DNA of 64,000 nucleotides from Kondoa subrosea. Taxonomy: Eukaryota. The stretch spans positions 2,386,678 through 2,450,677 of the forward strand of contig BCIN01000002.1 in NCBI GenBank assembly GCA_039545335.1. The letters run 5' to 3'. The notes beneath the pieces were generated by a model. That model was not told the DNA's origin. It did not search any database and saw nothing but the letters and a program-made list of their open reading frames with translations. A program made the translations under genes and the position numbers. Shown one piece after another: positions 18,989-61,351 of this stretch. The first letter of the stretch is position 1. The number at the start of each line of letters is the position of its first letter.

Positions 18989-19996
18989 TCAGCGCCTTTT
19001 CGAATCTTTCCATTGCCGATATCCCAGAGTCAATGCCAAAGCAGCCCCTGGTCCCAGCAACACACTTGCCCCAAGCATAAGTACGACCACCTTGATTTTC
19101 CCTAGTACCGTATCACTCAATGTCCAAGCCACGAAACAGATCAGTGCGGAAGTAATCAGTGCTTGATCGGCTAAGAAGAGTCGATGAGCGTCTGCTGCGA
19201 ATCCAGTAGAACGCCGAGTAGTTATTAGATCGAGTAAAGGTAAACCTGAAGTAAGAATCTTGTATTGACCAGAAACGGATATGATGAATGAAAAAGCGTA
19301 GGCGAGGAAGAGTGGGAGGGAAGCGCTTGCTCGACGAGGTAGAATGAAGGAGAATAAGAGGTTGGCTATTGATGCGATTGGATAGAGGTACAAAGGAAAG
19401 GGCTGCCAGATTGATAAGGCTTGATACGACCAATTTGTGATTACGACTTGATATGTTGTGTGCCAATAACTAATCAAAACAGCGAGAACTGAAGCCCATG
19501 CATTCGATGCGCTCAATCCGGTCAGAAGACGTTTTTGTGGCCGAAGATAGACGAGAAGGGCGAGATAGGCTGGAATGCACACTGCAGCTGAAATGACTTG
19601 ACCGCAAAGTAGAGCTAGAATTCCCGCGTAACTTGCTAGATCTGGTATGCGCTGTCGACTATCGATGGTGATGAAGAAAGTGATTGTACTGAAGAGCTGA
19701 GCGAAAGATCCTGAACCGTACTGCTCGCCAAAGCTCTTGCTATACTCTTTGAAGGGCATATTGATGTAGCAGAGCAGCTCATTCAGCGACTTCGGCAAGA
19801 ATGCATAGAAGTGAGTGTCAACGTTGTTGAAGCAGGCTTGCGCGCTGATACTTGGATCTTGAAATAACGGCTTCTGGCAGCCTTTCCCTCTATATCAAGC
19901 TATGTCCAACATCTGAACCGTTTACTTACAATAGCCGAGAATGATTACTACAGCCAAGGCTGAATGCGCCAGGAAGAAGAGACTTGCTGAAGCCAT
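18989..19996 (-). CDS. Multi-pass membrane protein of unknown function
   Basis: 269-aa hydrophobic ORF at 18989-19798 plus an upstream exon MASASLFFLAHSALAVVIILGY ending in a GTAAGT donor. Contains the motif SIWQPFPLY. Confidence 0.7.
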
Positions 19997-20707
19997 AAAG
20001 ACGGATGCTGGCCAGCTTGGACTCTTCTTCTACCTTGTTTGATCACTTGCTCCAGCTATATTCCTTGTATGTTCCGCACAATTTCAGATGCAACTTGAAC
20101 GCCAGATGCACCCAGGCCTAAAGCTTCAACGTTGCCCTGTTCGTCTGGATGAAGCTCCTCAAGCGACGATGACCAGAACGCGACCGTATGTGGACAAGAC
20201 AAGCTCGTCTGTAATTTGGAGTCTCTCTTTCGCAAACAATCAACATCCGATATCCCAGATCGAGATACCCAGGCTGCTCTATACCTCTCCGATATACACA
20301 AGGGCTCAGGTGCTCAGAAAGTTAAGGGAAGCGCTGCAGCTTGATTAAGCTTGAATTCGTGTTTAATGGACTTTGGACCCTTGTACGCAACGCATTGGTG
20401 CGACACCCAGATCTGATCTTGAGGTCTAATTACGCGCTGAAGTGATCTATTCCTTTCAAATATTGTTCTGCTTCTCTTCGGCGTCATTCGAGCGGTCATC
20501 ACTTCCGTTCCATCAAGTCGGCCTCGGTGCTGTCCGCGCATCAGCAGACTGATCTTGTCTAGCAGAAGTTGTTGCTACTTGACTGAATAGAAGAAGTTAT
20601 TGTTGTTACCTCACTGAAGCTGCAAGCGTAGAATTGGATCCAACTCGGATTCTCGACTTCTGATCCATTTCACTCGTGAGTCTCGCTGTAAATATCTGGC
20701 CCAGAAG

Positions 20708-21828
20708 ATGATCATATCCGATCATGTCCGGAGTAGAATCTACATAGGAGCAATGCAGAAATTATCGCCCGACATAGCAGCACGTTTACCCAGTGCAGTC
20801 GACAATCTACTGAAAGCAATGAAAGAAGGAGACTGGGAAAATATTGGCGCGCTGGACTCGGTAATATCCTTGGACCCAGCCAATGAAAAAGATCTTGAGA
20901 GATTACGTGCGCTGGCATACCGCCGGGTCTTCTGCGAAGCGCCTCAAGACATTTTCAACCTATGCAAAAGTATGCTGACCGACTCCTGTTCCGATACACA
21001 TGGACTTCAGCACCAGGGCGTAATAGCCTCTCTTACATACTCGTTATCTTATTCCAATTGGCTCAATTGTTTCGCTCAAAAGGATGCCCATCTGTTTCTC
21101 CTCAATTCGCTTCATTTCGTTCTTTCATGGTCAGCAATCGCATGCACATCGTTCACAGATTCCACAGCCCATGTGAGCGTTTTCATGGGCATGCAGTACC
21201 TGCTGTCAGCATTCAGCAAACGACCAGACCTCTGCAATAGCATTTGTAGGCACGCGGACGACTTTCCGGAATTCAAGCAAGATTGGCAATACGCTGTAGA
21301 TCTTCTCAACGGCAACGAGATCAAGGTTACTGATTCAAAATACGGCTCCGCCCGAAGAGTGGTGATGGCTATCAACCTGGCAACAGCTTATATCTGTCTT
21401 ATTCTCGGTCTCAGAATCCCGAATGACAAGTTGCAGCACTTACAGCTGTCCCAATTATGTCAGATCAAGCAAATTTCTGAGGTCGAAGCTCGCATTTCTG
21501 CCATCCATCAAATTAGTCCAATAAATGCACTTCGCCCCGTCAGAACATACGAATGTATTCACTGCACCGCCTACTACCGTCCACGCGATATGCAAAAAGC
21601 TAAGAATGATACGATTGCGAGCCAATTCAAATTCTGCTCCGGGTAAGTCTGATTGAAACAAGCTGCCATGAAAGAATAGCTTAATGGTTCTTACTAAACA
21701 GTTGTTCTGCGGCTATGTATTGCTCTCGTGCTTGCCAAGTGGCAGATTGGAAAGCTGGTCATAAGAAGCGTTGTTCTGGAAAGAAAAGCATCCAATCTAA
21801 AGAAGACATCGACGTAGGCAATGAGTAG
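20708..21828 (+). CDS. MYND-type zinc finger protein
   Basis: 312-aa ORF ends CIHC...KFCSG; after one intron it continues CSAAMYCSRACQVADWKAGHKKRC, the MYND consensus. Confidence 0.85.
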
Positions 21829-22212
21829 CTGATGAGTCAAGTGCTGTTGGTTTGGTATCCAAGTATCGGTAAAGGAAGGAGATGCTACAGCTTTCGATTG
21901 GTCAATGGGAAGAGTACTGCGAGTGGAAGTTGGGTTTTCTTTTCAATGGACGGTCTGCTTTAGGGGTTGCAACACAATCAAGAGACGTAGTATGGTCAAG
22001 ATGATCATGGATTTGCGCTTATCTGGAGGAAGTTCGAGATACCTGAAGTTGTGATCCCATATACATTTCTTAGTATTCATCAATACCGCTATTGGATTAG
22101 TTATCATTTGTAATCTTATGATATAAACAACAGATTGCTACCCCCTTGCGTCTGGTTTCTAGGTTCCTTCAATTTCGGCTCGAGCTTAGCTTGTTTTGCT
22201 ACGTCGACGATT

Positions 22213-23277
22213 ATGAGTGAAAGCGAAGCAACACCCAAGAGCGCTGCTCAGCTACGTGCAGAGAAGAGGAATGCAAAGATCAAAGCTGGAGCAGGCAGCA
22301 GAATAGCCAGTATCACAACTTCCGCTCGAGGTGAAGAAGGCAAAGCCTATCTCAACAGTACATCTTCTGTTTGTCTCGTTTCGGTCAAGACACTGACTTA
22401 TCCAGAATACATTAGAACCTACACCTTTTGAGAATAAGCAAGCACCAGCCAATGCAGGTTTAGATCCAGATGACATTGATCTCTCTTCCCTCGCACCATC
22501 AAGATCTTCAGCTCGTTCAGATCCTTTCGCAGCTTCTACTTTCCCAGAACTAGCCTCAGAAGGTGGTCCACAAGATTTAATGTCAATGTTGGCTTCTCTT
22601 TCAGGAGGGGGACAAAATGGTTCAGCAATGCCTGATTTCCCTCCTGAATTAGCAAATAATCCTTTAATGGCTGCTTTATCTTCTATGTCTGGAGCTGGTG
22701 GAGCTGGCAGTGGGATGGGAATGGGACCTGGAATGCCTACTCAATCTGAAGTGATGAGACCGAAAACATTAATGGAGAGATTGTTGCCAATGTTGCATTT
22801 CGTTAGTATGATTGGGTTAGTGGTTTGGGCTGTTATGGTTGGTGAAGGGATCAATTGGGCGAGATTACCTTTCAGAAGCGAGAGCACAAAAGAATGGGCT
22901 GCGGATGCGATTGGGATCATCAAACCTGTGGTCAGTCCACAAGTCTAGACTTCCATTGTTACTCAGCTGACCGCGGTGGGAACATGTAGCCATTGTTCTA
23001 CGCTTTTATTACTGCACAATTGGTATTACAAACAATACAAATATTCGTACAAAAGGTGATTGCTCTTCAGCATTATTGTATACAATACTCATTCCTCATG
23101 CAGCGATCTGCACCACCGCCTTCAATGCTTCAAAGCATTCTACCAATGATTCCGCATCCATTCGGCATGTACATCTCAACAGGAATCAAGTATTACGCGC
23201 TTTTCGGTTCCGTTCTGGACGATTTATCGGTTTTGCTGGTAGGATTAGGAGTTTGTATCCTTTGGCATTCTTTATAG
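22213..23277 (+). CDS. GET complex subunit Get2/CAML-like protein
   Basis: Basic N-terminal motif AAQLRAEKRNAKIKAGAGSRIASIT, a disordered M/G/P-rich middle, and three C-terminal TM segments. Confidence 0.65.
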
Positions 23278-23323
23278 AACGTTCGCAAATCCAAAATCCG
23301 AAATTGGTTGTGGTTGTCTTTTA

Positions 23324-23702
23324 TCATTCTTGAGTTTTAGAGGAATCGACTTCTGCCCATCGTTCACGAATCTTTTCTCTCTTCAGTTTGGCTTCTGCGT
23401 TGTTACTTAGTGCTTTCGTTTTCCTCTGACCGTTTATTCAGTATTGAACACGAAAGCTGAGTAACCTATGGAAAATGACATACTTCACCTCGAAGACACA
23501 TATTGAGTGCATTCTTCTGATCGTTGCATTTCCCATTAAAGCGTGCTAGTATTCCAGATTTATGACATTCTTCTAGCGCTTGAATGAACTCTGAGCAGAC
23601 TGTGCAACCAATAGTAGAGAGAGATTAGATTCACCGCGATCGATAGTATGAATAAGCAGGAGAATAACCTTGATGCTGATGTTGTACTAATGGCGGATGC
23701 AT
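23324..23702 (-). CDS. CMC2: COX assembly mitochondrial protein Cmc2 (twin Cx9C-type), 3 exons, intact copy
   Basis: Manual splicing gives MHPPLVQHQHQVCSEFIQALEECHKSGILARFNGKCNDQKNALNMCLRGERKTKALSNNAEAKLKREKIRERWAEVDSSKTQE*. Confidence 0.88.
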
Positions 23703-23804
23703 TGACTATGATCCAGAAGAAGAGTGGCTGCTAGTGTCCAAGCCATAACGGAATTAAATGTCCTAGGTTGATCTTGTCAGACCATCTCCTGCATCTATAC
23801 AGTA

Positions 23805-24972
23805 ATGAAACAGAAGCGGACTAAAGCCAATCGCAAGACGATGAATATCTACACAGCCTCTTACGGCTTCAGGTAGCTTTCAGTCTGTTCATCTGATCTG
23901 ATAAATCTTGCTCATTTTGCATTTTTCCTCTGCTCATAGAGAACCGTTCAGGATATTGGGTCAGTCTCTCGACAGACATGTCTGTAAACATGCTAAGAAT
24001 GTGAATTAGTGGATGCGGACTTTGCTTTATCTGTGATTGCGCAGAAGTTGGATATAGAAGACCGACTGAAATCTACGCTGTGTGGTGAAATCAACCCTAG
24101 TAGGTCGAGTAACAGGAGAGATCAATCATCCTCTGATTGAATTGGACAAAGTGATCACACAATGCTGTTTGAATCATTTGTATGATTTGGGACCTGATGG
24201 ACAACCTGCTGTTGAACTCGCTCGAAGTTGGACACGATGGAAATGCAATCATTGGCAGACGAAAAGTACAACAGCTGAATGTTTATCAGGTGTTATAGGT
24301 CAGTTTCATGACCATGTCTGAAGTGTAGAGAAAATTAAAGTGGTCGGTCTTTTAGGCGATACGAATGCAAGACAATACTGTCTAGCTACTCAATCATCAG
24401 ATCTCAGAGCAACATCGAGAGATATTCCAGGTCTACCAATCATTTACCTCAACCCACATTCAGTCTTGATTCTCGAACCACCTTCAGAAGCAACTATAGG
24501 CAAACGCAAACAAATTGAAGAAACAAAATTACATGCTTCAACTAGTGAATTACAAGATTTGCAAGCTGGAAACAATGTTATAGGATCTTCTTCTACAGCA
24601 ATACCTTCTATTTCTTCTACTTTAGCTCAACCAGTAAAAACTGCTGAACAAACTATAGCTGCAAAGAAAAAGAAGAAGGGTGGACCGAAAGCTCCTAATC
24701 CTTTGAGTGTGAAGAAGAAGAAGAAATCAACTGTCTCTGTTTCCAGTACTGCATCGAAAGTGAAAGCAAGCAAAGAGAAGCCAAAAGTCGCAAAGTCGAA
24801 ACCTGTCGATCCTGAAGCAACATCTTCTGAACAGATAGAAAGCGCGGTGGGGAAGACGCAAGAGAGTATATTGAGAACTGCAAGAGATGTTCGAAAACGG
24901 CAGAGGAAAAGAGCAAAGAAGTCTGAGCCTGCGAATAGCACGAGCGCTAGTGCGGCTGAAGCAGTTCAATAG
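23805..24972 (+). CDS. UTP23: rRNA-processing PIN-domain protein Utp23, copy 1
   Basis: MKQKRTKANRKTMNIYTASYGFR-EPFRILVDADF, VITQCCLNHLY, RWKCNH, YCLATQ, IPGLPIIYL..VLILEPPS, KKKGGPKAPNPLSVKKKK. Confidence 0.93.
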
Positions 24973-25021
24973 AGTAGGAGCATCTACTGCTATTTAACAT
25001 ATATATTTGCATTGTATTCCC

Positions 25022-25889
25022 TCAACTAATATCTTCATTCTCCTTGTTCTCCTTATTCCAATTTGCGAGCGAATCTTTCAGAGCATTAGGATAATCGGCA
25101 TACTCTTTGCCTCTTAGTGCTAGAGTATACGAAGCTGAGGCCCAACACCATCAGCGTTTTTTCACTAAGGCTCAAGACTAGCTTACCTCCTTCCAATTTC
25201 CGCAAAGATTGACCAGTGACGATCATCTTCTTTCCCAGATTCCGTACTACAGGACTGAGGGGGCTCATCTCTGTGAATATGTCATCAAACTCTTGAGGGG
25301 TGATATACAGAATGAAGCTCAAAGACTAACCTGAATGCACCTGTCTAACCCATTGCTGCGTTTCTTGCACAGTGGCCATACTCGCATCGAAGCTTGACGA
25401 TCCAACAGCAGCAATACCATAGCGCATCAATTCACCCGTAAGATCAGACAGGCTGTAAATCCGAAGAAGATAGCAGTGTCAGCATTTTATGCTGAGTCTT
25501 TTAGTCTTGAGCTTACCCTAGTAGATAATCTTCCTCGGAACAATGTACTTGAGCTTGAGACAATTTCTCTCGCACTTGTTGTAGCGTGATGAGTGATTTC
25601 GGTTCTTGCAAGAAATAAAGGAAAGAGATAGCTTCGATCTGTCCAATATACTCCATCTCTTATCCCTCAATGAGAAAGAGAGATAAAGTAGAACGGACCC
25701 ATTCTTGTAATCCACCAGTATATTGATCCTTATACCTAAAAGTATGATATGATCCTAAATCTTTACCAACAGCATCAAAAATGGCTAAAAGCTCTGCTTC
25801 TTTCGCATTCGCTTGCTGTAACAATGGACCTAAAGGTGAATTGGAAGCTCTATGTAAGAGGAAGATGAGTTTCTTTGAAGCTGCTGTAA
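25022..25889 (-). pseudogene. 5'-truncated translin-associated factor X (TRAX) copy
   Basis: Contains GGLQEW/IEAISF and DYLLGLSDLTGELMRYGI but lacks the N-terminal ~35 codons present in the copy at 31215-32299. It is fused out of frame to an MCR1 fragment. Confidence 0.85.
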
Positions 25890-26298
25890 GTAAATTCCCG
25901 GAACTCGTTTGGATCCAAAGCGGAAGTAGTTAGAGGAGTCGAATCTGTAGAAGTATAACCAGCAACGGCCTATAATAGCTTAATATAAGCCTCTGCATCG
26001 ATTGATACGAATGCGAATGTATTGACGCACTTTAACTTTCTCTGCCATATTGTGCTCCAGATCTTTGACATCTTTAGGTGAAATCTTTCCTCCTGAAGTG
26101 TACCAGTATCCACCACCAGCCACAAGTGCCACACCACCCAGAATTAAAGGTAGCTGAGAAGAGCTCGAACTAGCTGAAGTTGCGTATTGTCGCCTCTGTT
26201 GACCGGATCAGCAAGGCCCTTGACATATATGATCTGGCTCAACGCACAGCCGTAGCTGGAGCGCATCGAGCTAATCTAGGAAGAAACCGTGCTGCCAT
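25890..26298 (-). pseudogene. MCR1: 5' fragment of mitochondrial NADH-cytochrome b5 reductase (Mcr1-like), cut at the start of the FAD-binding domain
   Basis: Three exons read MAARFLPRLARCAPATA / RRQYATSASSSSSQLPLILGGVALVAGGGYWY...KVK / AVAG...SALDPNEFREFT: presequence, TM anchor and the SALDPxEF motif typical of fungal Mcr1. The sequence then switches to TRAX. Confidence 0.7.
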
Positions 26299-26419
26299 CG
26301 TTGCTGACAGAAGAGCACAATCGCGAAATATCGTCTCGCTTAGACTCAAACAGTCATATCGCGGTGCCGCCAAACGTTGCCGCTCTTACCAGTTGTGTCT
26401 AGCTGTACTAGATTGGGTC

Positions 26420-28073
26420 ATGTCGTCGGCTGCTCGCTATCGTCGCAATCGTGGGGTTCGTGGCACTATCCGGGTGTATAACGATCAAGATGCTGCTCGA
26501 ACTGCACGAGGATGTCAAAACAAGAGCCGATTTGAACGGTCTCCTCATATCAGGGAGTTCCTAAAAAAAGTTCGAAGCAATAGCAACGCAAACCCGCAAG
26601 AACCGCAAGAACCTCTAAGTACTAGCGAAGACTTAGGCACGATGTGTCTTCGGTGGGCAAGACAAGTGGTCCCACCTTCAGATGATTCAGGCGAGGAATG
26701 GGTAGACGTAGACGAGCTATCGTTTGAGATGTCAATCAACCCAGAGGGTCATGCACCGGCGAGCAGCCCTTCATCAATATCCTCTGGATCTTCTTCCACA
26801 TCCAATTCTCGTCGCAGCGCCAAATTGAAGAGAAGGGCTCCCATTGGCTCCGATGGTGTAGTGGCGATAGTGGATTTCGAGGCGTATGAAAAGACCACTC
26901 GAAATGTACGCGCTGTCTGTTTCATCATCTCGGGTCATGCTTACTTGCATAGGCAGTATTATGAGCAGATTAGGGCAGAGAGCGATCAGCAAATAGCGGC
27001 ACTTCGTTTGCAGGTGAAGGTCGAGGAAGTTGCACGTTTGAAGGAACAGGCGGCACGTTTTACGGAACAGGCGGCACGTTTGAAGGAACAGGCGGCACGT
27101 TTGAAGGCAGAGGCGCAAATGAAGGACTTGGAAGTTGCACGTACGGAGGCAGAGACAAAGAGGAAAGAAGGCATCATCTTGAACTGGCAGATCTCCGATA
27201 AAATTGTGTTAGGTACGATCCAGTCAAAGCCTCCACCGGTTGCTTCTTGTCTCATAGCTTGCTACAGCGACAACCGCGTTGATGAAAGCTCAACCTGAAT
27301 GGAAGAATGAAATGGATGACTTGCCTCGTAGGCTCGCATTAGGTTTACAGAGGCCAGTGTGCTGATCTGAGCTACAGTGCGCCAAGCTCTCCGACAAGAC
27401 CGCTCAACAGCTTTGCTACAGGATATGCTGCGTATTTTTGATAATCTGCCAAGGGCTGTCCAAGACCTCACGAAAGCCGCGTACGCCGTTCTGACCAAGC
27501 CTAACGCTCAAGCACGACATGATCTCTATCATCCCAAAACTGACAAGCAAGCGTTGCATGTCTTTGCAGTACAAAAGTTGGACGCCCCCGACACCGCGCT
27601 CAATGACGCAGTCAATCTTCTTGCGCCACAGAGGATTCATACTACCCTTTCCAATGAACTGGTTGAGGCGTTCCCAAACTCCTAGCACTGTCTACTTCCC
27701 TCGTACGTCTCATTTGTTAGGGTTACATGTATTCTCGCAGCTGATGTTTAACCTTGTGAACCCGTATCAGAGTGCCAGTATACTGCTGTAGCAATGGAAA
27801 GAGACTCTCTTTCATGTATACGTTGTACGTCTCTGCTGCTGCCGCGCTGTCCTTCTTTAAGTGGTTCCCGTCAGCAGGATATAGCACCGATAATGCAAAA
27901 ACCATCTTCTGAATTATTCAGTCCAATCTGTTCGTACAATCTATATCGCTCTCACAAGCTCGTAAAGGTATCGGTCTCATATTGTGAGTCTATCCTTTTG
28001 CAGTTTTTACTGAATTTGAGCTAAAGTGAAAAGCAAAGACGTCGTAGCGAAGTACCGCCGAAAGCGAATCTAG
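26420..28073 (+). CDS. Orphan coiled-coil protein gene, possibly a pseudogene (start and 3' exons uncertain)
   Basis: Long ORF to 27298 and a second ORF at 27377-27685 are linked by GT-AG introns. Possible further exons are interrupted by in-frame TAG (27683-27685) and TGA (27910-27912). Confidence 0.5.
27032..27115 (+). repeat. 21-bp coding tandem repeat x4 (heptad ARLKEQA)
   Basis: GCACGTTTGAAGGAACAGGCG / GCACGTTTTACGGAACAGGCG / GCACGTTTGAAGGAACAGGCG / GCACGTTTGAAGGCAGAGGCG. Confidence 0.95.
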
Positions 28074-28216
28074 CCGCATTGCTACTTCTTGACGGTGAAA
28101 TTATCATTGCTTTCTCCGCTATGTATAACTAGTGAATTGCATACTTTCTTTTTACTTGTTATTGTACATTGCTTCGCTTTCACCGGCAGGGCAATTGTCC
28201 GTCTAATGGCAAGCTC

Positions 28217-29762
28217 CTAGCTCACTGACCTGCTACCAGCTACGACATATTTCTTTGTCTTGTCCATCTAGTTGTAAACATCTTGAGAAACGCGTAGAGT
28301 ATCTTTCACTACATGACCAGGCAGCAGAGCCATCCATTGTTGAAGCGAAACGCTAGAATCCAAGAAACAGATTGAGCTTATCATCGGTTACCGAGGTACC
28401 ACTACGCTCACTCTTCAACAGAAGGAGCCTTGAAGATCTATGGGGAGCTGATGCATTCAATATAATGACCGTAGCTGTTGTCGAATTTTCAGCCAAATAG
28501 ATGTCAAGGTAGAGAGACCTTACTCTTTTGGAATATATCCAACACCCTCCGCCTGGAAGTTGAAAGTGCGAGTGTTTTCGCCTGCAGCAAAGAGCCCAGC
28601 GCGGAAGTTTCCATAAATGAAGTAATCCCATGCATCGGAATTAGGGTGCCAGTGGAGCTCCCGCATACCTAGTTAAAAGATCAGCGGCGAACTTGACTTC
28701 TCGATTGATGTGCCGACCAACCTCCTGGCTGAATAGTGAACTCTGCTGCTGCTATAGTTTGCGAGGCGTTGAAGTTCGTGCTATCTGCAATCTTTACAGT
28801 GCCACCTTCGAGCTGTAAATCACCTTCTCAGTTTGCCAANNAGAGAAAGATATGATTGATCATGACTGACCTGCATTGGCTGCACTTTCGAGAACGAGTA
28901 GGTGTAAGCNTCAGTTGTTCGACCTCCTGGAGCATTCGGTACGTCTTGCTGACTGACTGGTCCGGGAGAAGGTGCTTCAACTGTGCCATGCTTCAGTACA
29001 ACCATGTGCTGAGAGGGATAAGAGCATACAAATATAGAGTTCCTCGCCAGGTATGTCACTGAAGGCTGTGGAGTTCTCATCGTAGCCAAAGTTCTTATTC
29101 AGAACGCCTTTAGGAATGTGAGCAGTCCAGTCAGAAACGAGGAAGGTGTCATTCTCGTCGAAGTCGCCCTGTGACATATATGACATGTCAGCTTTACCTC
29201 AGCGCAGCTGTCCTGATGTCGCACCTGATCAAATACCAAGATGAATTCGATGCCTATATCGGGATCATTCGCCTGGATCGAATGAGCTAGATAAGAGTAT
29301 CAGCAGGCTCAAGGATAGAGAAGAACAGTATATTGGCTGACGAATGCCTGAAGGGAAGAACCAAAGGTCGCCAGCCTCCACATCTGTTAAGACCAAATTC
29401 AATATCGAGACTCTCAGGCAGCTAGATGACAGACCAGCAGCGAAATTCTGTCCGTTCGGATCCGTGTTCACTACGGCTACAGTTGCAGAACCTTTGAGCA
29501 CAAAAGCCCATTCGTTCGCTGTTGGAATATGACTGGATTAGCTAAGGTGAACATGACGAAATTTGACTTGCCAGTATGCCAATGAAGCTCTACTAACTCT
29601 ATCAAGCCGATAATCATAGACATGGGAGAAAGACAAACCTCTATAGGCACCAGGTTTCACTGTCAAAATGGCAGCCAGTCTTAGTCGACACCAAAGTCAC
29701 ATAATGCGCAAAGCTTACATCGCACATTCACACCAGCTATACTCTCAGCACTGGGTAATTCC
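28217..29762 (-). pseudogene. oxdC: 5'-truncated, disabled oxalate decarboxylase (bicupin, OxdC family)
   Basis: Begins abruptly at ELPSAESIAGVNVRLKPGAYRELHWH. Also has GDLWFFPSG, GDFDENDTFLVSDW and a second GMRELHWHP. No N-terminus or signal peptide; premature TAG at 28268-28270. Confidence 0.88.
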
Positions 29763-29842
29763 GATTAGATTCCGCACGATCAAGTGTGTCGACGAGAAGA
29801 AGACCAACCTTGATGCTGATGTTGTACTAATGGTGGATGCAT
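29763..29842 (-). pseudogene. CMC2: CMC2 exon 1 plus partial intron 1 (truncated copy)
   Basis: ATGCATCCACCATTAGTACAACATCAGCATCAAG|GT encodes the same MHPPLVQHQHQ as the intact copy (one synonymous change). Downstream exons are replaced by oxdC sequence. Confidence 0.85.
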
Positions 29843-29961
29843 TGACCAGTACTTCAAAGAACGGTGTAGGTGTGGCTGCTTCAAGACAAGCGCTGTAACG
29901 AAATCCAAAATGTTCCACAGCTTAACCTTGCCAAACCATCTTCTCCCTGACTACTGTTAGA

Positions 29962-31148
29962 ATGAAACAGAAACGGACTAAAGCTAATCGCAAGACGATG
30001 AATATTTATACAGCCTCTTACGGCTTCAGGTAACTTTTCAAGTCTTGTTGACCTTAAGATCTGATAAATCTTGCTCATTTTGCATTTTCTATAGGGAACC
30101 GTTCAGGATACTGGGTCAGTCCCTTGATAGACAAGTAATTACGGATGCCTTATACCGTGAAACTAAGTGGATGCGGATTTTGCTTTGTCTGTGATTGCGC
30201 AGAAATTGGATATTGAAGACCGACTGAAATCTACTCTTTGTGGTGAAATCAACCCTAGTAGGTTTTGAGTAACAGGAGACATAGGAGCTTCTTCTCTGAT
30301 CTAAAATTGAACCAAAGTGATTACGCAATGCTGTTTGAATCATTTGTATGATTTGGGACCTGATGGTCAACCTGCTGTTGAACTCGCTCGAAGTTGGACA
30401 AGATGGAAATGCAATCATTGGCAAACCAAGAGTACAACAGCTGAATGTCTATCAGGTGTTATAGGTCAGTTCCCATCACCTGTTTTTGCATAGCATTAAG
30501 AAGCTAAGTTAGTGAGATTTCTTTTCAGGCGATACAAATGCAAGACAATATTGTTTAGCTACTCAATCATCAGATTTAAGAGCAACATCAAGAGATATTC
30601 CAGGTTTACCAATCATTTACCTCAATCCACATTCAGTCTTGATTCTCGAACCACCTTCAGAAGCAACTATAGGCAAACGCAAACAAATTGAAGAAACAAA
30701 ATTACATGCTTCAACTAGTGAATTAAAAGATTTACAAGCTGGAAACAATGTTATAGGATCTTCTTCTTCTTCAACAATACCTTCTACTTCTTCTACTTTA
30801 GCTCAACCAGTTAAAACTGCTGAACAAACTATAGCCGCAAAGATGAAGAAGAAGAAAAGTGGACCGAAAGCTCCTAATCCTTTGAGTGTGAAAAAGAAGA
30901 AGAAATCAACTGTTTCTAATAACATGAACGGACCGAAAGTGAAAGCAAGCAAAGAGAAGCCTAAAGTCGCAAAGTCGAAACCTGTCAATCCTGAAGCAAC
31001 ATCTTCTGAACAGATAGAAAGCGCAGTAGGAAAGACGCAAGAGAGTATATTGAGAACTGCAAGAGATGTTCGAAAACGGCAGAGGAAAAGAGCAAAGAAG
31101 TCTGAGCCTGCGAATAGCGCTAGTGCTAGTGTGCCTGAAGCAGTATAG
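29962..31148 (+). CDS. UTP23: rRNA-processing PIN-domain protein Utp23, copy 2
   Basis: Same exon structure and motifs as copy 1; the reading frame appears intact. Confidence 0.93.
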
Positions 31149-31214
31149 CAGAGGGAAGATATCATCTGCTATGTAACATATATATTTGCATTGTATTCCC
31201 ATTAACTAATATCT

Positions 31215-32299
31215 TTATTCTCCTTGTTCATTCTCCTTGTTCTCCTTATTCCAATTTGCGAGCGAATCTTTTAGAGCATTAGGGTAATCGGCATACTCTT
31301 TGCCTCTCAGTGCTAGAGTGTACGACGCTGAACCCCAAGACTCTGAGCGTTTCTTTTCATTAAGACCGAAGACTAGCTTACCTCCTTCGAGTTTCCGCAG
31401 AGATTGACCAGTGACAGTCATCTTCTTCCCCAAATTCCGTACTACAGGACTGAGGGGACTCATCTCTGTTGCAGATGATCACTTCCTGATTAATAGAACA
31501 TTAACTGGAAGTGCAAAGAACCAACCTGAATGCATCTGTCTGACCCATTGCTGCGTTTCTTGCACAGTAGCCATACTCGCATCAAAGCTTGATGATCCAA
31601 CAGCAGCAATACCATAACGCATTAATTCACCCGTAAGATCAGATAGTCTGTAAGTTCCGTCGAGATATCCAATCAGCTATTCGCTGAGTCGAAAACCGTC
31701 GAACTTACCCTAGTAAATAATCTTCCTCGGAACAATGTACTTGAGCTTGAGATAGCTTCTCTCGCACTTGTTGTAGCGTGATGAGTGATTTCGGTTCTTG
31801 CAAGAAATAAAGGAAAGAGATAGCTTCAATCTGTTCGTATTCTCCGTCGCTATCCCTCAATGAGAAAGGAGACAAGTAGAACGAACCCATTCTTGTAATC
31901 CACCAGTATATTGATCCTTATACCTAAAAGTATGATACGATCCTAAATCTTTACCAACTGCGTCAAACATGGCTAAAAGCTCTGCTTCTTTCGTATTGGC
32001 TTGCTGTAACAAAGGGCCTAAAGGTGAATTGGAAGCTCTATGTAAGAGGAAGATGAGCTTCTTTGCAGCTGCTGTAATGTCGCGACTGCATTTGATCAAG
32101 CGTTCTCTTCTGTCTTGCTGAATAGCAATAGGAAGTAAGCAGGGCAGAACAGAGGACGAGAAGATAGGAGTAGCTTGCGTGTTCGTTCAACTCAACGGCA
32201 CTAAGGAGAGAAATAATCAACTGTATGAATAATGACACTTTGAAGACTGGAGGAAAGCTACAAGTTCTGGAACATCTCCCTGATGCTAACCTGAGCCAT
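31215..32299 (-). CDS. Translin-associated factor X (TRAX/translin family), full-length copy
   Basis: MAQVSIREMFQNFAVELNEH-QDRRERLIKCSRDITAAAKKLIFLLHR...GGLQEWIEAISF...DYLLGLSDLTGELMRYGI...KKMTVTGQSLRKLE. Confidence 0.88.
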
Positions 32300-54170: not shown

Positions 54171-56662
54171 ATGTCGCATGTTCTGCTTATCTTGGGCACA
54201 GTACTCTTAGCCTTTCTTGTGCAGCGCCTCTATACCGTCTACAAGATCGTATCTACGAGTCCAGTCCCTTGCTTGGTGTCATTCTTTGACCACTTGTTCG
54301 ATTTCATTGTTCTCAGTCTGTGGCTCTCCCTTTTCTCATTCCGCTTGCTAGCTTTCCACCTGGATCCTTCATTACTCGTCAAATAGGAAATCCAAACAGC
54401 GGTTTCATTGTTGTACTTGGCCCAGAATGGAATGAGTTGAGTCACTACGTATCTTCTGTCTCACCTTCAGCAAACTAAATGAGCGGGGCAGAGAAATGTT
54501 GAGATTCTGTGCGTCCTCTTCAGAGTAATTTTGCGTCCGAGAGTCCTGGCGCTGATTGCGCATAATAGCGCTGAAGGATCGGCTCAATCCAGAAACAGAC
54601 TGCTGGCTCTATGTGTAAGCTGGACCTTATGGTTGGCTGAGACATGTTTTCGCTAACATTATTACAAGAACCTGCTTTCCATTGATGTCAGAACTCAAGT
54701 TCTTCGATTCTTCTGCTGTTCGTGCGATCAACAATGATAACAAATGCTACGAGCGGTGTGAAGAGTATAGAGAGTGGGACCTAGCTCTGCGTCATACCGC
54801 ATCTCTCGCTGATCTTGCCTGTTCAGTATGGTCGCTCACTTGTTTGTTTCGTCCGGCCCGAACCAAATTACAGAACCCTTACAGCTTCTACCAGCGGTCC
54901 AAGTGTGCTCACTACAGCTGGGAAAGAACACAAACGTCATCGAGCAGTTGCAGAACCCAGTTTCACAGCATCCAACAGTTCGCTCGTTTGGTCAGCAGCA
55001 GACAAAGTCATGCAGGAAATCTTCGCTTCACATGATGCTCAATACCCTAATCAAGACGTTCCTCTATCCGATGCTATCTCTTTCACCAGAAAGCTTGCAC
55101 TCATTGTCATCAAAGTTGCCGGGTTTGGCGTTAAATCACCCTGGGACGGCGTTGAGGAAAAGCCAAAAGCTGGAAGACGAATGACTTTTGATCATTCACT
55201 AGATGTAATCGTTCATGGTCTGAACACTATCTTGCGTGCTATTTTGCCAAGGGTAGAGTTTCCAGAACTGATACTCTGCGTGAGGCTGACGTGCTTATGT
55301 ACAGGCTGCATATTGGTTACCAATCAAGAACCTCAAAGAGATGGATGTTGCTTTCCCAGAATTTGATCTGGTAGACACCATATTTATAAAACCTGTTTCA
55401 CTTGGACTGACCATGCATTACAGATTATGCAAGACTTGGTGGAAGAACGAATTGCTGCACAAAACAACGGATTAGAAGAGGGTGCTGATCTGTTTGGCGC
55501 ATTGATACGCTCGATGGATGCAGATAACGGCGGTCTGACCAAGCGAGAGGTAGGCTTTCCGTCCGAGCCTTGCCCTTGAAGATCTCACCCCGTCCTTGTG
55601 ACTTTAGGTCCTTGGCAATATCTTCACCTTCCTCTTTGCGGGGCACGGTACGGCCTCCGTTGCAAGCATCGAGAATGATCTCATTTGGAATTGGCAGAAA
55701 CTACTGCCAATACGCTGGCTTTCCTTATGGCTTACCTTACTTTGTATCCGGAAGAACAGCGCAAGCTATATGAGGGTAAATCTGCCGGATGTATCAAGGA
55801 CTCTGGCTGATGATAGACGACCAGAAATCAAAGAAGTTTTGGGTGATCAAGATCGTCTAGTGAGTTCCAACTTTACACTGCTGACAGTTGCTGAAACAAA
55901 ACAGGCATACGCTGACATGAACAAGCTGTCAAGAGTGCTAGCTGCCATCAACGAAACCGTACGACTCAAGTATGATCACATGTCTTGGTATCACGAAGCA
56001 AGGCTGATTTGCTACAGACCTCCAGCAGTTTCTATCGCCAAATGGTGCATCCAGGACCATGTCCTTACTGTTCCAAACAGGCAGACGGGCGGCAATGTAC
56101 AGATTCCAGTGCAGAAAGGAGCTCAAGTCGGCGGTGAGACTGTTTGATACAAGCTGCGCATACTTGACTGACATCAATTCAGCATACTTCCAAGGAGTTC
56201 ATCACAACGAGTCTTTCTTTCCTGAACCTTCAGTTTTCCGCCCTGAGCGATTCCTTGATGGAAGCAAAGAGAAGAGTCAGTCCGAGCAGCCAGCTATTCT
56301 GCAGAATGAGATGCTGATCTTGCACCATAGCTCATTTCTTTGGCTTCTCAAGCGGAAGCTATTCTTGCATCGGACGGAAATTCGCAGAGGTGGAAGCAGT
56401 TTGCATCATCGCTAATCTGCTTTTGCGGTATGAGCTGGAAGTCATCAAATTACCTGGCGAAACACAGCAGGAGCTCGAGAAGAGAATATTGAAAGGAACT
56501 CCAATCGTAACATGTGAGTTTCCAACCCATGCCTATCTCTTGATCTGATCAATTCTCGCTTTTCAGTACAACCACCTAGTGTTGGATTTGTAAGTGGCTA
56601 AGTACGTCTGTCACTAAGACCTTACGGGTCACGCACAGATGTTGAAGCGAAGGAGTACTTGA
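54171..56662 (+). CDS. Cytochrome P450 (paralogue B)
   Basis: MSHVLLILGTVLLAFLVQRLY, KEHKRHRAVAEPSFT, FLFAGH-ETTANTL, ETVRL, PERF, FGFSSGSYSCIGRKFAEVE. Confidence 0.92.
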
Positions 56663-56857
56663 TTGAAATGTTGAAATATTTCACTACTGAGGAGCAACGT
56701 CGTTCATAATAGATGTAGACAGTACATGTCAAATTTAAAGCATGCTGCATAATTGCTTTCTAGTCTCCAATTCAGCTCTACTAACGAGACTTCCCCGTCA
56801 ACTAACAACTGTTAATCTTGCTCGAAATGCTGATCGATTTGATTTCGATGCCCTCGC

Positions 56858-58320
56858 TCAACGCATGACGACTGGTAACTCGTTTCTCATCAGCACGCGA
56901 CGCCCTTTACCGGTGGGAAAACTCTTGTAACACCCATCAACCGTTACGCGAGTGGAAAGCGCCTTCATATCGGCTAACAGAAGGTTGATGATCCACTGAT
57001 GTGCCTTACCAAAAGTACCGTCGGAATACTCTGCTTTCTCTTCCATTGCATCTCGATGATCATAACAAATATCAAAAGCGAAAGAATGGAGCTTAGGGAA
57101 ATTGCAAAGGTTGAAGAGATAGTTGAAGGAAATCAATCGAATGATAGACCCTTGCTGGAGTAGAGTGATCGAGAATACCTCGAGTTGCGTGCCAAAAGTT
57201 GAGTGATGGCTGAAAGCGTTCCGCAAGCTTTGGCAAACGATTTCTGACATTGCCAATTGATCCCACTGCAGATGAAGCACCTTACACGAGGACAAATTTT
57301 CGAAGAGCTTGCTCAATGATTGACTTTCCAGGAGACCCCGCACTGTTAAGGTGGTGAGGCGATTGAATTGCTCGACGTAGGGCAAAAAATCGGGCCATGG
57401 CCAGCTGTCAGGAGCGAATTCGAAGTCGAGACTAGTGATGAATGCTTTGGGATCTTGCAAAAGCCTGGTGAATGCTACGTCTTTATCCGGCCCGGTCCAT
57501 TGATCCAAGCACGTTTCCTTAGTGACGCGATAGGTCAAGCGGGTGAGTTTTGGTAAATTGGAAAGTAGGTCGATTTCGCCCAAATAAATATTTTTTAGAC
57601 AGAGAATTTCTAGTCTTGGTGTATGACGAATCAGATGAATGAAAGGGTGCCAAGAACTTTGGGAGAAGTTCATGTCTAGAGCTGACGATAATTCGAGATG
57701 CTGCAATGCAGGCAAGAAAACAAGACTTGCCAAGGAGATGCGAGAGGGCAGCATGAGCCAGTCTACAATATCGTATGCTGCGTTATAAGCCGGATCAATT
57801 CCATCACGAATGCCAACACGCAAAGACCTAAGCTTGACAAGGAGCCGAAGAATCGCAACAGCTATTTCGTTTCTTGATGCGGCTTCCTTCCTGGCTTCAA
57901 TCAAATCCCAAGAGAAATGGCAAGGTCTTTCTTCCCAACACCAGGCTGGATGAACCATGGTGGTCGTTATAGTCCATTCAGCGCGTCGGACAAATTGGCC
58001 TGGTTGACATCCTGACTGTAACGATCGAAGAAGTTTTCTACTGGAGAGATGCTTCGAGTCAAGCGACCAATAGATGAGAGGAAGGGTGATGTGATCTGGA
58101 ATTGCAACCCGCGATGAACTGAGAGTCGGGTTCGCAATAATAGCAGATACTTACAGAATGCTTCTACGAAGGTTATCAGCGAGATGCATTGACATTCAGA
58201 GGCAACATAGCTTACTGGAAGACAGAGCGATGTTCACCAAGTCCTGCTTGGATTCCGACTTCGTTTGCTTTTCCACCATGCTAAGATGTCCGACAGCAAT
58301 TCCACTGGAAGAATAGTCAT
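56858..58320 (-). pseudogene. F-box-like/LRR-like protein, copy 1, with a 1-bp frameshift in exon 1
   Basis: Starts MTILPVELLSDI, then goes out of frame versus its paralogue (TTT reduced to TT at 58283-58284). The 366-aa downstream ORF is open and homologous to 61352-62815. Confidence 0.65.
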
Positions 58321-58680: not shown

Positions 58681-61185
58681 ATGTCGCTTAGCATACTGCT
58701 CGTCTTGAGCTCTGTGCTGTCTGCCTTTCTTGTGCACCGTCTCTACACTGTGTATAAACTGGTATCGACAAGCTCTGTTCCATGCCTTGTCTTGCTCTTT
58801 GATCATCAGTACTTCGATTCATTGGTTTCATATTTATCTGTTCTTGTTCTGATTGTTAGTGTAGCTTTCCACCTGGATCCTTCATCACTCGTCGAATAGG
58901 CAATCCTAGCAGCGGTTTCGCTATTGCTCTAGGCCCAAAATGGAACGAGTACGGGCCTTCTATCTTGCCTTCCTCGACTATGAACAACTGAGATTTGCAA
59001 TAGGGAATTATTACGCGTCGGTAAGTCGTTCTAATAGGTACAATCACGTTACATTGATTTCGCAACGCAGCTGTCGAGGACAGAATCAACCCAGAGACAG
59101 ATTGTTTTCTCTACATGTTAGCCGGCGGCGCTGTATTCTGACAAGTTGGCACAAAGCTGACACTGTATTCGATAGTTCTTGCTTTCCATTAGTGGCAGAG
59201 CTAAAATTCTTTGACTCTGCTGCTGTTCGTTCAATTAAGAACGATAACAAATACTACGAACGCTGCTTAGAGTACAGAGGGTAGGTGTTAGCTCCCGCTT
59301 ATGTGATACATCGCTGATTGATTCCTCTTCAGAATGTTAACAATCTTGTGTGTCCTCGTCTTCTCGACACTATCTTAGCTATTATTAACTGATTTGCTAC
59401 AGTGGCCCAAATCTACTGGCTCTCGCGGGCAAAGAACATAAACGCCATCGAGCAATTGCAGAACCCAGCTTCACTGCTTCCAACAGTTCTCTTGTTTGGT
59501 CAGCGGCTGACAATGTCGTGCAAGAGGTCTTCGCTTCTCATGACGCTCAATTTCCGGATCGAGATGTCTCCTTACCTGATGCTATTGCTTTCATGAATAA
59601 AGTCACTTTGATAGTAATCAAAGTAGCAGGTTTTGGTGTCAAGTCGCATTGGGAGAGTGTTGAGGAAAAGTCCAAGCCTGGAAGACGAATGACCTTCAAT
59701 CAATCGATGGACGTTATTGTACATGGAATCAACATTGTCTTGAGAGGCATTATACCACGGGTATGCACTGTCCTCCTCAATTTTAAGGCTTGCAAATGGC
59801 TAATAGGATCTGCAGGCTGCGTACTGGTTACCGATCAAGAATCTCAAAGAGATGGATATCGCCTTTCCAGAATTTGACCAGGTGATTACTGGGGCCGGAG
59901 AAGATATTCCTTGCAGACTGAACGAATATCACAGATCATGCAAGACCTAATAGAGGAACGAATTGCTGCTGAAAACAGCGGCGTTGAAGAAGGCGCTGAT
60001 TTATTTGGCGCTCTCATACGCTCGATGAACAATGGGACTGATGGATTGACTCAGCGCGAGGTCAGGCGTATAATATGCAGTTTCGAGTAAGAATTGATAT
60101 CTGTAGCTAGGTCTTGGGAAACATTTTCATTTTCCTCTTTGCCGGACACGGTATGGTCTCACGCTACATCACAAGCTTAAGCTAATCGGCCACGGCAGAA
60201 ACTACTGCCAACACTCTGGCTTTCTTGATGGCCTATCTTGCGATATATCCTGAAGAACAGCTCAAGCTATATGACGGTAAGTGCAAGGTCCTTCTCGACA
60301 GCTCTCGCTGATATTACATTCTCTACCCTACAGAGATACGAGACGCTCTGAGTGATCAAGTTGGTTTGGTGCGTGCTCGTGTTGACTCTGACACAGTAGC
60401 AGCTGAAGTTCAAAAGACCTACGCCGATATGCATCGGCTACCAAGAACACTAGCTGCCGTCATTGAAACGATTCGACTTAAGTGAAGTTTTGCCCTTTTT
60501 CTTGCGAGTGTATAGCAGCTGAACCTCTCGGTAGGCCTCCAGCTGTTTCGGCAGATAAATGGTGCATACAAGATCATACTCACGCCATGCCGAACAGGCA
60601 GACTGGCGGGAATGTGCAAATACCAGTATCGAAAGGCACAAAAGTTGGCGGTTCGTAACCATCAGGCAATCTCCTGGCACCTTTCTAACATCATTTGCAG
60701 CATACTTTCAGGGTGTACATTACAACGAGTCGTTCTTTCCCGAGCCATCAGTATTCCGACCAGATCGTTTCCTTGCCGAAAGCAAAGAAAAGTGTCAGTT
60801 CTGCGCATCCGGAAGAGAGGAGAAACTCAATTTGCGTGACAGCTCACTTCTTTGGTTTCGGTACTGGCACCTATTCGTGTATCGGTCGCAAGTTTGCAGA
60901 AGTCGAAGCGGTTTGCATCATTGCAAACCTTCTCTTGCGATACAAAATCGAAGTCGTGAAGTTGCCTGGTGAAACGCAGCAAGCACTCGAGAAGCGTATA
61001 CTAAGAGGGACAATCATGGTAGCCTGTAAGTCCAACGATAGGGAATGCCCTCTTCTTTTTCAGCTCATCGAGTCGGTTTGCAGTACAACCACCCAGCGCC
61101 AGCTTTGCAAGTCGTTGGTTATTTCTCTTTCGACGAGCTGACGTGTCTGGAACAGATTCTAAAGCGAAGGGACACTTCAACATAG
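58681..61185 (+). CDS. Cytochrome P450 (paralogue C)
   Basis: MSLSILLVLSSVLSAFLVHRLY, KEHKRHRAIAEPSFT, FLFAGH-ETTANTL, ETIRL, PDRF, FGFGTGTYSCIGRKFAEVE. Confidence 0.92.
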
Positions 61186-61351
61186 CAAGGGTAGAAAGCA
61201 GTTATGGAGATCGAGTCATGCCAAATTTCTACTATTTCGTAGTGATCAATATGCATTATCAGTCCGTACCAGATGTTATTGGATCGCAATTGCTCCATAC
61301 ACGAAAGTCACGTTGCAGACAGGTCCCAAATTTAGACACCTATGCTCTAGC

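Follow-up and report, generated by a model that had tools for sequence, protein, structure and literature searches.

A diverged direct duplication around a copied block in Kondoa subrosea looks like a known kind of copy-and-paste rearrangement, with cut genes that seem too well preserved for its apparent age

Known rearrangements and the layout of the locus

When a plasmid integrates into a yeast chromosome by the classical Campbell-type (ends-in) route, direct repeats of the homology segment reportedly flank the insert. In cancer genomes, events named cycles of templated insertions have been described, in which strings of copied templates return to the host segment and re-replicate it; the available portion of PMC7025897 counts 1,467 such cycles, most of them with two junctions. 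Replication-based segmental duplication and MMBIR, in yeast and human, give non-recurrent end points and complex duplications with inserts, and their template switches tolerate diverged sequence (PMC2518615, PMC2621351 and PMC4215184, in their accessible parts). Template switching between diverged sequences is documented for yeast break-induced replication (PMC4215184, same part). For human loci, duplication by means of circles that are cut out and reintegrated has been proposed (accessible text of PMC7188851). Finally, introgression and mitotic recombination in basidiomycete yeast hybrids, at ~10% divergence, are a route that can bring DNA of a diverged relative beside resident DNA (bioRxiv 10.1101/2021.03.02.433606 and PMC7846113, as far as their available portions go).

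The window analysed here is a stretch of 64,000 nucleotides from a contig of the fungus Kondoa subrosea (BCIN01000002.1, positions 2,386,678 to 2,450,677, assembly GCA_039545335.1). A sequence-only reading of it had proposed a diverged direct duplication around a 3.9-kb foreign block. The duplication was recovered by three routes: a repeat search linked arms A and B by 14 co-linear families in direct orientation (81-95% identity), comparison of the window with itself by blastn gave the two arms as its single match (85.2% across 2339 columns), and in a global alignment with 400-nt flanks, likeness began and ended abruptly at the edges of both arms. The three parts are as follows.

23623 to 25889: copy A of the duplicated segment, 2267 bp, left edge within CMC2 intron 1
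25890 to 29762: inserted block, 3873 bp, a copy of the MCR1 / orphan / oxdC locus
29763 to 32077: copy B of the duplicated segment, 2315 bp

The host segment is present twice in direct order, its outer flanks are continuous, and the duplicated content consists of CMC2 exon 1, UTP23 and most of TRAX:

23469 to 23702, minus strand: whole CMC2 (Cmc1 family), copy-A side (Pfam Cmc1, E 2.6e-11, in ORF 23469-23624)
23669 to 23702, minus strand: its exon 1, followed by intron 1 (23600-23668) and exon 2 (from 23599 downward), by frame reading
29809 to 29842, minus strand: CMC2 exon 1 stump of copy B, 11 codons, one synonymous difference from A
23805 to 24972, plus strand: UTP23 copy A, five exons, 313 codons, intact (gene model and splice sites)
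29962 to 31148, plus strand: UTP23 copy B, five exons, 314 codons, intact (gene model)
25022 to 25889, minus strand: TRAX stump of copy A, five exons, 209 codons plus stop, frame and all splice sites kept
31215 to 32275, minus strand: TRAX copy B, whole, its 5' exons beyond the repeat being a predicted model

The gene names given earlier to these genes and to those of the block (CMC2, UTP23, TRAX, MCR1, oxdC) were confirmed by Pfam, by PDB matches and by tblastn of a predicted protein, P0117. UTP23 is a Fcf1/PIN-like protein of the small-subunit processome; both of its copies here are full length and carry Pfam Fcf1 and the UTP23_sensor motif, so that the claim of two intact copies stands. Among 116 matches, their closest relatives are from Pucciniomycotina (37-43% identity), and none of the 116 is an outgroup near enough to polarise changes. 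The last gene is TRAX, the translin-associated factor X, and not translin: it belongs to the Pfam Translin family, and PDB matches are to TRAX chains only (3axj_B, 3riu_C, 3pja_J), the alignment to 3axj_B starting at residue 42 for copy B and at residue 58 for copy A. The predicted model of copy B includes a GC-AG intron at ~32118-32178.

Alignment and gene models agree with the order of genes first read, with the sharp cut points, and with outer genes whole and inner ones cut. The description of the inner genes as "CMC2 5' only" and "TRAX 3' only" was right as to the cuts and imprecise as to their extent. On its left the arm begins within CMC2 intron 1, 23 nt ahead of the acceptor, and for this reason copy B keeps the 11-codon first exon alone; TRAX in copy A lacks its promoter and, by the predicted gene model, just the first ~26 codons. 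On the following marks, the locus does not qualify as capture by a transposon, Helitron or retro-element: there are no inverted repeats of at least 40 nt in 20-36 kb, no transposase, reverse-transcriptase or RepHel domains among the 139 ORFs scanned with Pfam, and introns are all kept. The reported absence of transposon marks was thus upheld.

Among described systems, the locus resembles cycles of templated insertions (PMC7025897, available portion), with a host segment re-replicated in tandem, one template from elsewhere in between, two junctions, copy gain of both host segment and template, and gene fragments joined without transposon marks. It differs from them in being fixed in a fungal germline, those cycles being somatic, and in that ~0.25 synonymous changes per site separate the two arms, and perhaps also the template pair, with cut genes that have hardly decayed. 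It shares with replication-based duplication and MMBIR (accessible parts of PMC2518615, PMC2621351 and PMC4215184) the features listed above, but at junction 1 a 4-nt motif is doubled, not shared. With cut-and-reintegrate duplication through eccDNA (PMC7188851, in its accessible text) it has in common direct repeats flanking the insert, whole outer genes and cut inner ones; it differs from this and from Campbell-type integration in that no circle was seen, no crossover point was detected, and homology is only 85-92%. The likeness to basidiomycete yeast hybrids (bioRxiv 10.1101/2021.03.02.433606, PMC7846113, available portions) is that of diverged DNA lying beside resident DNA; a hybrid ancestry is hypothetical for the present genome.

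The sequence-only reading had also taken the layout for the signature of a DNA circle integrated by a single crossover. Whole outer genes and cut inner genes are, however, what any tandem re-replication produces automatically when something is inserted at the joint, so the layout is not diagnostic of a circle and nothing at the locus requires one. The same reading had offered template switching as an alternative route to this layout.

The inserted block, its junctions and its second copy

The block holds two gene fragments and one orphan gene.

25890 to 26298, minus strand: 5' fragment of an MCR1-type NADH-cytochrome b5 reductase (tblastn of P0117)
26248 to 26298, 26031 to 26195 and 25890 to 25969, minus strand: exons of this fragment, residues 1-100, frame open
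26174 to 27295, plus strand: long ORF of the orphan gene, first ATG ~82 codons in, near 26420
28268 to 29762, minus strand: 3' fragment of an oxalate decarboxylase gene (oxdC), 12 exons, 300 codons, both cupin domains

The three MCR1 exons match residues 1-100 of the 349 residues of P0117, which carries FAD_binding_6 and NAD_binding_1. The cut falls at the start of FAD_binding_6, so the fragment does not combine an N-terminal anchor with FAD and NAD domains. A suspected frameshift near its start turned out to be an intron. The orphan ORF contains 21-nt tandem repeats (27032-27115), and no relatives of it were found in 5.8 billion proteins (near lengths), in JGI metagenome contigs, or by features in the ESM Atlas.

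Single exons of the oxdC fragment match OxdC chains (E 1e-19 and 3e-9), and all 11 introns are bounded by GT or GC and by AG. Both domains of a bicupin oxalate decarboxylase are there, but the N-terminal part is gone, a premature TAG lies at 28438-28440, and in cupin domain II an alanine is aligned to the glutamate that precedes the conserved Trp. In bicupin oxalate decarboxylases each domain has three His and one Glu for manganese, and this glutamate would be the ligand of the second manganese site. Between two aligned exons, the stump is five residues shorter than bacterial OxdC. A word-limited search of an oxdC exon against longer proteins gave no match, nor did the TAG exon, with its stop read as X, against PDB, its 26 residues being too short. 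One metagenome match of an oxdC exon was rejected, as it consisted of an 11-residue motif only, on an unrelated high-GC contig.

Two junctions bound the block:

25889/25890: junction 1, TRAX codon ~27 to MCR1 codon 100, same strand, out of frame
29762/29763: junction 2, oxdC exon to CMC2 intron 1 of copy B, same strand

Pristine stumps would likewise result if two complete diverged loci, from haplotypes, homeologues or a mixed culture, had been fused into a chimera by the assembler or within reads, and three Ns lie within the block (28840, 28841, 28910). Depth was read from contigs of two runs of one sample (X1 and X2), a check that covers the left part of the locus with junction 1, one of the two, and so leaves some room for the artefact. 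As the runs are probably the assembly's own sample, it tests the assembler, not biology. A single contig of 2508 nt, at depth 52.9, runs from the unique left flank into the start of A. In run X2, A-specific pieces had depths of 63.3, 47.3 and 74.7, and block-specific pieces 63.1, 41.7, 71.3 and 49.1. Both A (47-75) and the block (42-71) are hence at the depth of single-copy flank and not at half of it, the value named earlier as the sign of allelic haplotypes joined by misassembly.

No contig bridging junction 1 was among those listed. At the repeat edges, the only loose ends belong to the flanks of copy B (exact matches at 29776 and 32078), and B's left continuation, 240 letters, has no match on A's CMC2 exons. 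In this left-part set, no contig extends A to complete TRAX, or B into CMC2 exon 2. The junctions are phased on one molecule in the assembly, and the contigs leave no alternative continuation. Moreover, the joints are without a common repeat of k-mer length able to mislead a graph assembler, and two chimeric joins 3.9 kb apart would be required. An artefact is, in our estimation, very improbable.

Variant contigs over the coding parts of MCR1, the orphan gene and oxdC reveal a second copy of the block, at least 90% alike and at the same depth, in the same sample, so that the block is not foreign to this genome in the plain sense. For the block, depths add up to ~2x where it is coding and to 1x in its non-coding bins, a pattern which suggests that this second copy may be as diverged from the block as A is from B. 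That similar divergence of the two pairs is the one thing that points to a single event. For the left flank, no second copy at 90% likeness or more was found among contigs of the same sample; if the genome has passed through a hybrid or diploid stage, the other parent's genome must then have been almost all lost.

Age of the arms and decay of the cut genes

The arms are old relative to each other. Synonymous divergence between A and B is ~0.25 overall (dS 0.235 for UTP23, 0.273 for TRAX), and non-coding parts show 216 mismatches in 642 aligned columns (34%) and 19 indel events. Substitution directions between A and B are balanced in non-coding DNA (81 vs 85) and in TRAX (17 vs 17), only UTP23 exons being skewed (38 vs 15). 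With these balanced counts and no CpA bias, RIP-like or directional mutation was rejected.

The cut genes, by contrast with this age, have barely decayed. The TRAX stump has an omega of 0.10, with 13 non-synonymous differences (neutral expectation ~67, P 1e-15) and no more than one indel where 9.3 are expected. The 95% bound limits its neutral phase to at most 31% of the per-lineage divergence. In the oxdC stump, 11 of 11 introns keep their boundaries and one frame runs across 904 nt, a length over which 13.4 indels would be expected. In the MCR1 stump all 100 codons are open, and CMC2 exon 1 in B differs at 1 of 34 nt, against 15 of 46 in the adjoining intron. From arms of this age next to near-undecayed, untranslatable stumps we infer that the joining happened much later than the divergence of the pieces, a point which the sequence-only reading had missed. 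The oxdC stump is not pristine; it may have lost its function a while ago, or ahead of the join.

The simplest history would be an old event within one genome. A and B would have started out identical ~dS 0.12-0.14 per lineage ago, as would the block and its source, and selection would have kept the cut pieces from then on because the junctions had created working chimeric genes. One event then explains the equal divergence of both pairs, and at both junctions the pieces are on the same strand with the 5' part upstream of the 3' part. At junction 2, CMC2-B exon 1 can be read in frame with oxdC through a cryptic acceptor at 29737/29736 (72-nt intron, 266 codons), but this reading stops at the premature TAG and lacks the metal ligand. 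At junction 1, a candidate cryptic GT...AG path could place MCR1 in frame with TRAX; if the annotated splice sites are used, however, MCR1 read from its start meets a stop 12 codons past the joint, and the TRAX frame has a stop 13 codons upstream, without an ATG. Constraint on TRAX includes its first 117 codons, beyond translation from any internal start. Such a history asks for function in four separate stumps, and an in-frame fit arises by chance one time in three. We consider it distinctly unlikely.

Proposed history and what it would mean

If the join is younger than the divergence of its pieces, these were already diverged when joined. They would be two versions of the same loci, either hybrid homeologues, introgressed DNA or very divergent haplotypes. 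Our best reading is that a single repair event united such homologous DNA, already diverged by then and of hybrid, introgressed or foreign origin, the locus being a real chromosomal rearrangement with the layout of a cycle of templated insertions; we give this explanation as a whole a probability of roughly 0.45. A broken end or fork would have replicated the host chromosome as far as TRAX, changed template to the MCR1-orphan-oxdC locus for 3.9 kb, and then re-entered the other homologue at CMC2 intron 1. With diverged arms and barely decayed cut genes, this re-entry was probably into a diverged homologue and not into the sister chromatid. The predicted product is a recombinant chromosome with two working UTP23 genes. 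A circle or concatemer may have achieved the same, as the locus does not discriminate between template switching and circle integration.

A Campbell-type crossover would start from diverged material too. Fragments CMC2'-UTP23-'TRAX and MCR1'-orphan-'oxdC of a diverged relative, united in a circle or concatemer, would enter by one crossover at the resident UTP23 and leave chimeric copies. This yields exactly the observed layout, direct repeats of the homology segment flanking the insert, and accounts for duplication of just these two pieces, both similarly different from their resident partners, as well as for the undecayed stumps; the circles proposed for human loci (PMC7188851, accessible text) offer a precedent. 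A near-identical 8-9-nt direct motif at both ends of the block, found post hoc and as good as that of 0.8% of random start/end pairs, could mean that these ends once paired. But three joins are needed, one of them a crossover within 2.3 kb at only 85-92% identity, and mismatch repair blocks recombination of divergent sequences (PMC7846113, available portion). Along the copies, a weak test of GC/AT substitution direction found no switch point between resident and donor (permutation p 0.25), and neither circle, donor nor uptake route is in evidence. We hold this crossover to be unlikely. It is equally doubtful that a basidiomycete-type fungus captured ~6 kb from a relative ~25% diverged at synonymous sites, as two unlinked fragments joined together and placed by homology without a mobile element. 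If it did, it acquired in this way another working copy of an essential ribosome-biogenesis gene together with a second orphan gene, and the locus would be nature's equivalent of integrative transformation in the laboratory, or the footprint of a vanished hybrid.

By template switching between diverged homologues, as we prefer to read it, the locus looks like a member of an already known kind of copy-and-paste rearrangement, whose cut genes seem too well preserved for its apparent age. It is then a clean natural fungal example of events catalogued mostly in tumours, and illustrates how UTP23, an essential gene normally present once, can be duplicated by such an event while gene halves become fused. 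Should the join prove to be old, the locus would instead supply two candidates for chimeric genes maintained by selection. The point of interest is the mismatch between the age of the parts and that of the join: if true, the locus records contact with a diverged genome, through hybridisation, introgression or DNA uptake.

Structure of the repeat and of its genes

Fourteen co-linear repeat families, at 81-95% identity, were found by a repeat search between the following direct copies:
23623-25889, copy A: CMC2-UTP23-TRAX segment, with TRAX cut
25890-29762, block of 3873 bp: MCR1 5' fragment, orphan gene, oxdC 3' fragment
29763-32077, copy B: CMC2-UTP23-TRAX segment, with CMC2 cut

Self-blastn gave a single match between A and B (85.2% across 2339 columns), and in a global alignment with 400-nt flanks the likeness starts sharply at 23623/29763 and stops sharply at 25889/32077. 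The 2.3-kb direct duplication proposed by the sequence-only reading is therefore borne out. The remaining window holds ordinary housekeeping genes. Only one further internal duplication was detected in it, tandem and older (54183-58308 versus 58696-62803, 68-73% identity by blastn), each unit of which carries cytochrome P450 exons on the plus strand and a long ORF on the minus strand (430 and 519 codons); neither ORF had a Pfam match.

Cmc1, Fcf1 with the UTP23 sensor motif, and Translin-family pieces were matched by Pfam in both copies. Among solved structures, the Translin-family gene matches TRAX chains exclusively, the alignment to 3axj_B beginning at residue 42 for copy B and only at residue 58 for copy A. 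Exon models were built by hand, and their frames and splice sites checked; UTP23 is intact in both copies (313 and 314 codons). On the left, the repeat starts within CMC2 intron 1, 23 nt 5' of the acceptor, so that copy B has only the 11-codon exon 1 of CMC2. The right edge interrupts a TRAX coding exon, and TRAX in copy A would lack its promoter and about 26 codons, according to the predicted 5'-exon model. Owing to a 13-nt indel just 5' of the TRAX stop (31215-31240 versus 25022-25035), the two TRAX copies end in different residues. The last UTP23 exon (24373-24872 versus copy B) has G/C in A and A/T in B at 22 sites, against 6 sites with the opposite pattern; outside this exon the two directions are balanced.

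In the block, three MCR1 exons match residues 1-100 of the 349-aa protein P0117 (FAD_binding_6 and NAD_binding_1 domains), and the cut coincides with the start of its FAD domain. P0117 and P0119 (JGI contigs of 1072 and 1222 nt, intron-less and transcript-sized) encode an MCR1-type protein that shares 63-86% identity with the window fragment, which indicates that this fungus has a fairly near relative in an environmental data set. The twelve exons of the oxdC fragment supply the 3'-terminal 300 codons of a bicupin, for which oxalate decarboxylases were the best matches in the PDB. In the gene models, GC-AG apparently stands in place of GT-AG in an intron of this fragment (29519-29571) and in an intron within the 5' part of TRAX copy B (about 32118-32178). 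The orphan ORF between the two fragments has 374 codons, and no relative was detected among 5.8 billion proteins at near lengths, in JGI metagenome contigs or by features in the ESM Atlas. At 27032-27115 a 21-nt unit recurs three to four times within it, encoding a repeated seven-residue coiled-coil-like stretch.

The block start (25890-25898, 9 nt) and block end (29755-29762, 8 nt) match each other as a near-identical direct motif with one gap, whose score was reached by 0.8% of random start/end pairs in a post hoc comparison. At junction 1 (TRAX/MCR1, 25889/25890), a 4-nt motif is doubled. No transposase or reverse transcriptase was found by Pfam on 139 window ORFs, and no inverted repeat of 40 nt or more by an inverted-repeat search of 20-36 kb.

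Sample contigs and a second copy of the block

Two runs from one sample, which may be the assembly's own (X1 and X2, each with about 19 Mb of contigs), contained 90-94% of the words of the stretch. The comparison covered 19001-28839, with junction 1 inside and junction 2 (oxdC/CMC2 intron 1, 29762/29763) outside. In X2, a single 2508-nt contig at depth 52.9 joins the left unique flank to the initial 300 nt of A; A-specific pieces are at 63.3, 47.3 and 74.7, and block-specific pieces at 63.1, 41.7, 71.3 and 49.1. These depths are close to that of the flank, so the copies are not at the half depth that the sequence-only reading had associated with misjoined allelic haplotypes. Among the matches listed, the loose ends at the repeat edges were solely exact matches to copy B's own flanks. 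The 240-letter leftward continuation of B did not match A's CMC2 exons, contrary to what is expected if B belonged to a complete second CMC2. No contig among the matches listed for this range carried A on into a whole TRAX, and none bridged junction 1. Within 19001-28839, the contig data indirectly support the assembled structure at the A/block side.

The coding parts of the block are also matched by variant contigs, at least 90% alike and as deep as the window's own version. Added together, the depths over these parts come to about twice that of the flank, and non-coding bins are at single depth. Equal depths with a doubled sum point to a second, diverged MCR1-orphan-oxdC copy outside the window. 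With such a copy among the same sample's contigs, the description of the block as foreign does not hold. Of the 97 differences between block and variant contigs, 40 were listed, 17 of them in the orphan ORF; among these 17, 10 affect third codon positions (P 0.027), and 9 leave the encoded residue unchanged, a pattern that lends modest support to a genuine orphan gene. The block also contains all three Ns of the window (28840, 28841 and 28910; two in an oxdC intron, one in an exon), which may stem from reads of the second block copy being mixed into consensus calling.

Age of the parts and age of the join

Divergence between copies A and B
UTP23: dS 0.235, dN 0.027, omega 0.11
TRAX, shared 209 codons: dS 0.273, dN 0.027, omega 0.10
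Non-coding: 216 of 642 aligned columns differ; 19 indel events
Coding: 103 of 1608 columns differ; 3 indel events (two of 3 nt in the UTP23 tail, one of 13 nt at the extreme TRAX end)

Judged from its sequence, A's TRAX stump cannot yield a TRAX protein. The frame from the MCR1 start meets a stop 12 codons beyond junction 1; the TRAX frame itself has a stop 13 codons upstream with no ATG between, and offers no in-frame ATG before about codon 118. Had this stump drifted ever since A and B split, it should have gathered about 67 non-synonymous changes and 9.3 indels; 13 (P 1e-15) and at most one (P 9e-5) are seen. At the 95% bound, its neutral phase took up at most 31% of the divergence per lineage. 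The other stumps agree on little decay: oxdC keeps 11/11 intron boundaries and a single frame across 904 nt, with 13.4 indels expected, MCR1 is open across 100 codons, and CMC2 exon 1 in B differs from A at 1/34 nt, versus 15/46 in the adjoining intron.

The oxdC stump has a premature TAG (28438-28440), 37 codons ahead of the natural stop. Between two aligned exons it also falls 5 residues short of bacterial OxdC, and in domain II it has alanine where PDB OxdC chains have glutamate, preceding a conserved tryptophan. Searches with the oxdC exons, metagenome contigs included, found no relative able to separate lineage features from lesions. A brief neutral phase of all stumps would fit both the low decay and these lesions. 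An old event remains tenable only on condition that the stumps function as chimeric genes; a single cryptic splice would bring CMC2 exon 1 into the oxdC frame, but such a fit is expected by chance in one frame of three.

The join is thus inferred to be far younger than the divergence of the pieces it joined, so that two already-diverged versions of both loci would have been present at the time of joining. Candidates for these are homeologues of a hybrid, DNA from introgression, highly divergent haplotypes and a relative's DNA.

Routes to the structure

Whole outer genes with cut inner genes are what any tandem re-replication with an insert at the joint leaves. The sequence-only reading had proposed a chimeric DNA circle integrated by a single Campbell-type crossover: its product has the same layout, which is compatible but not diagnostic, and nothing supports this route specifically among the several available. 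It requires three joins, one of them a crossover across 8-15% mismatch, and mismatch repair opposes crossover between diverged sequences, according to PMC7846113. A change-point test, weak in itself, detected no switch between resident and donor along the copies. The preferred route is template switching, in repair or in replication, that re-enters a diverged homologue; it would need two switches and tolerate divergence, as PMC4215184 describes for template switching. The evidence does not separate this route from the circle.

In a cycle of templated insertions, as defined in PMC7025897, templates copied in series lead back to the host chromosome, a segment of which is then replicated again, mostly with two junctions; the A-block-B structure fits that definition. 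It is a new natural example of a class already known, and what is unusual about this locus is the apparent gap between the age of its parts and the age of their join.
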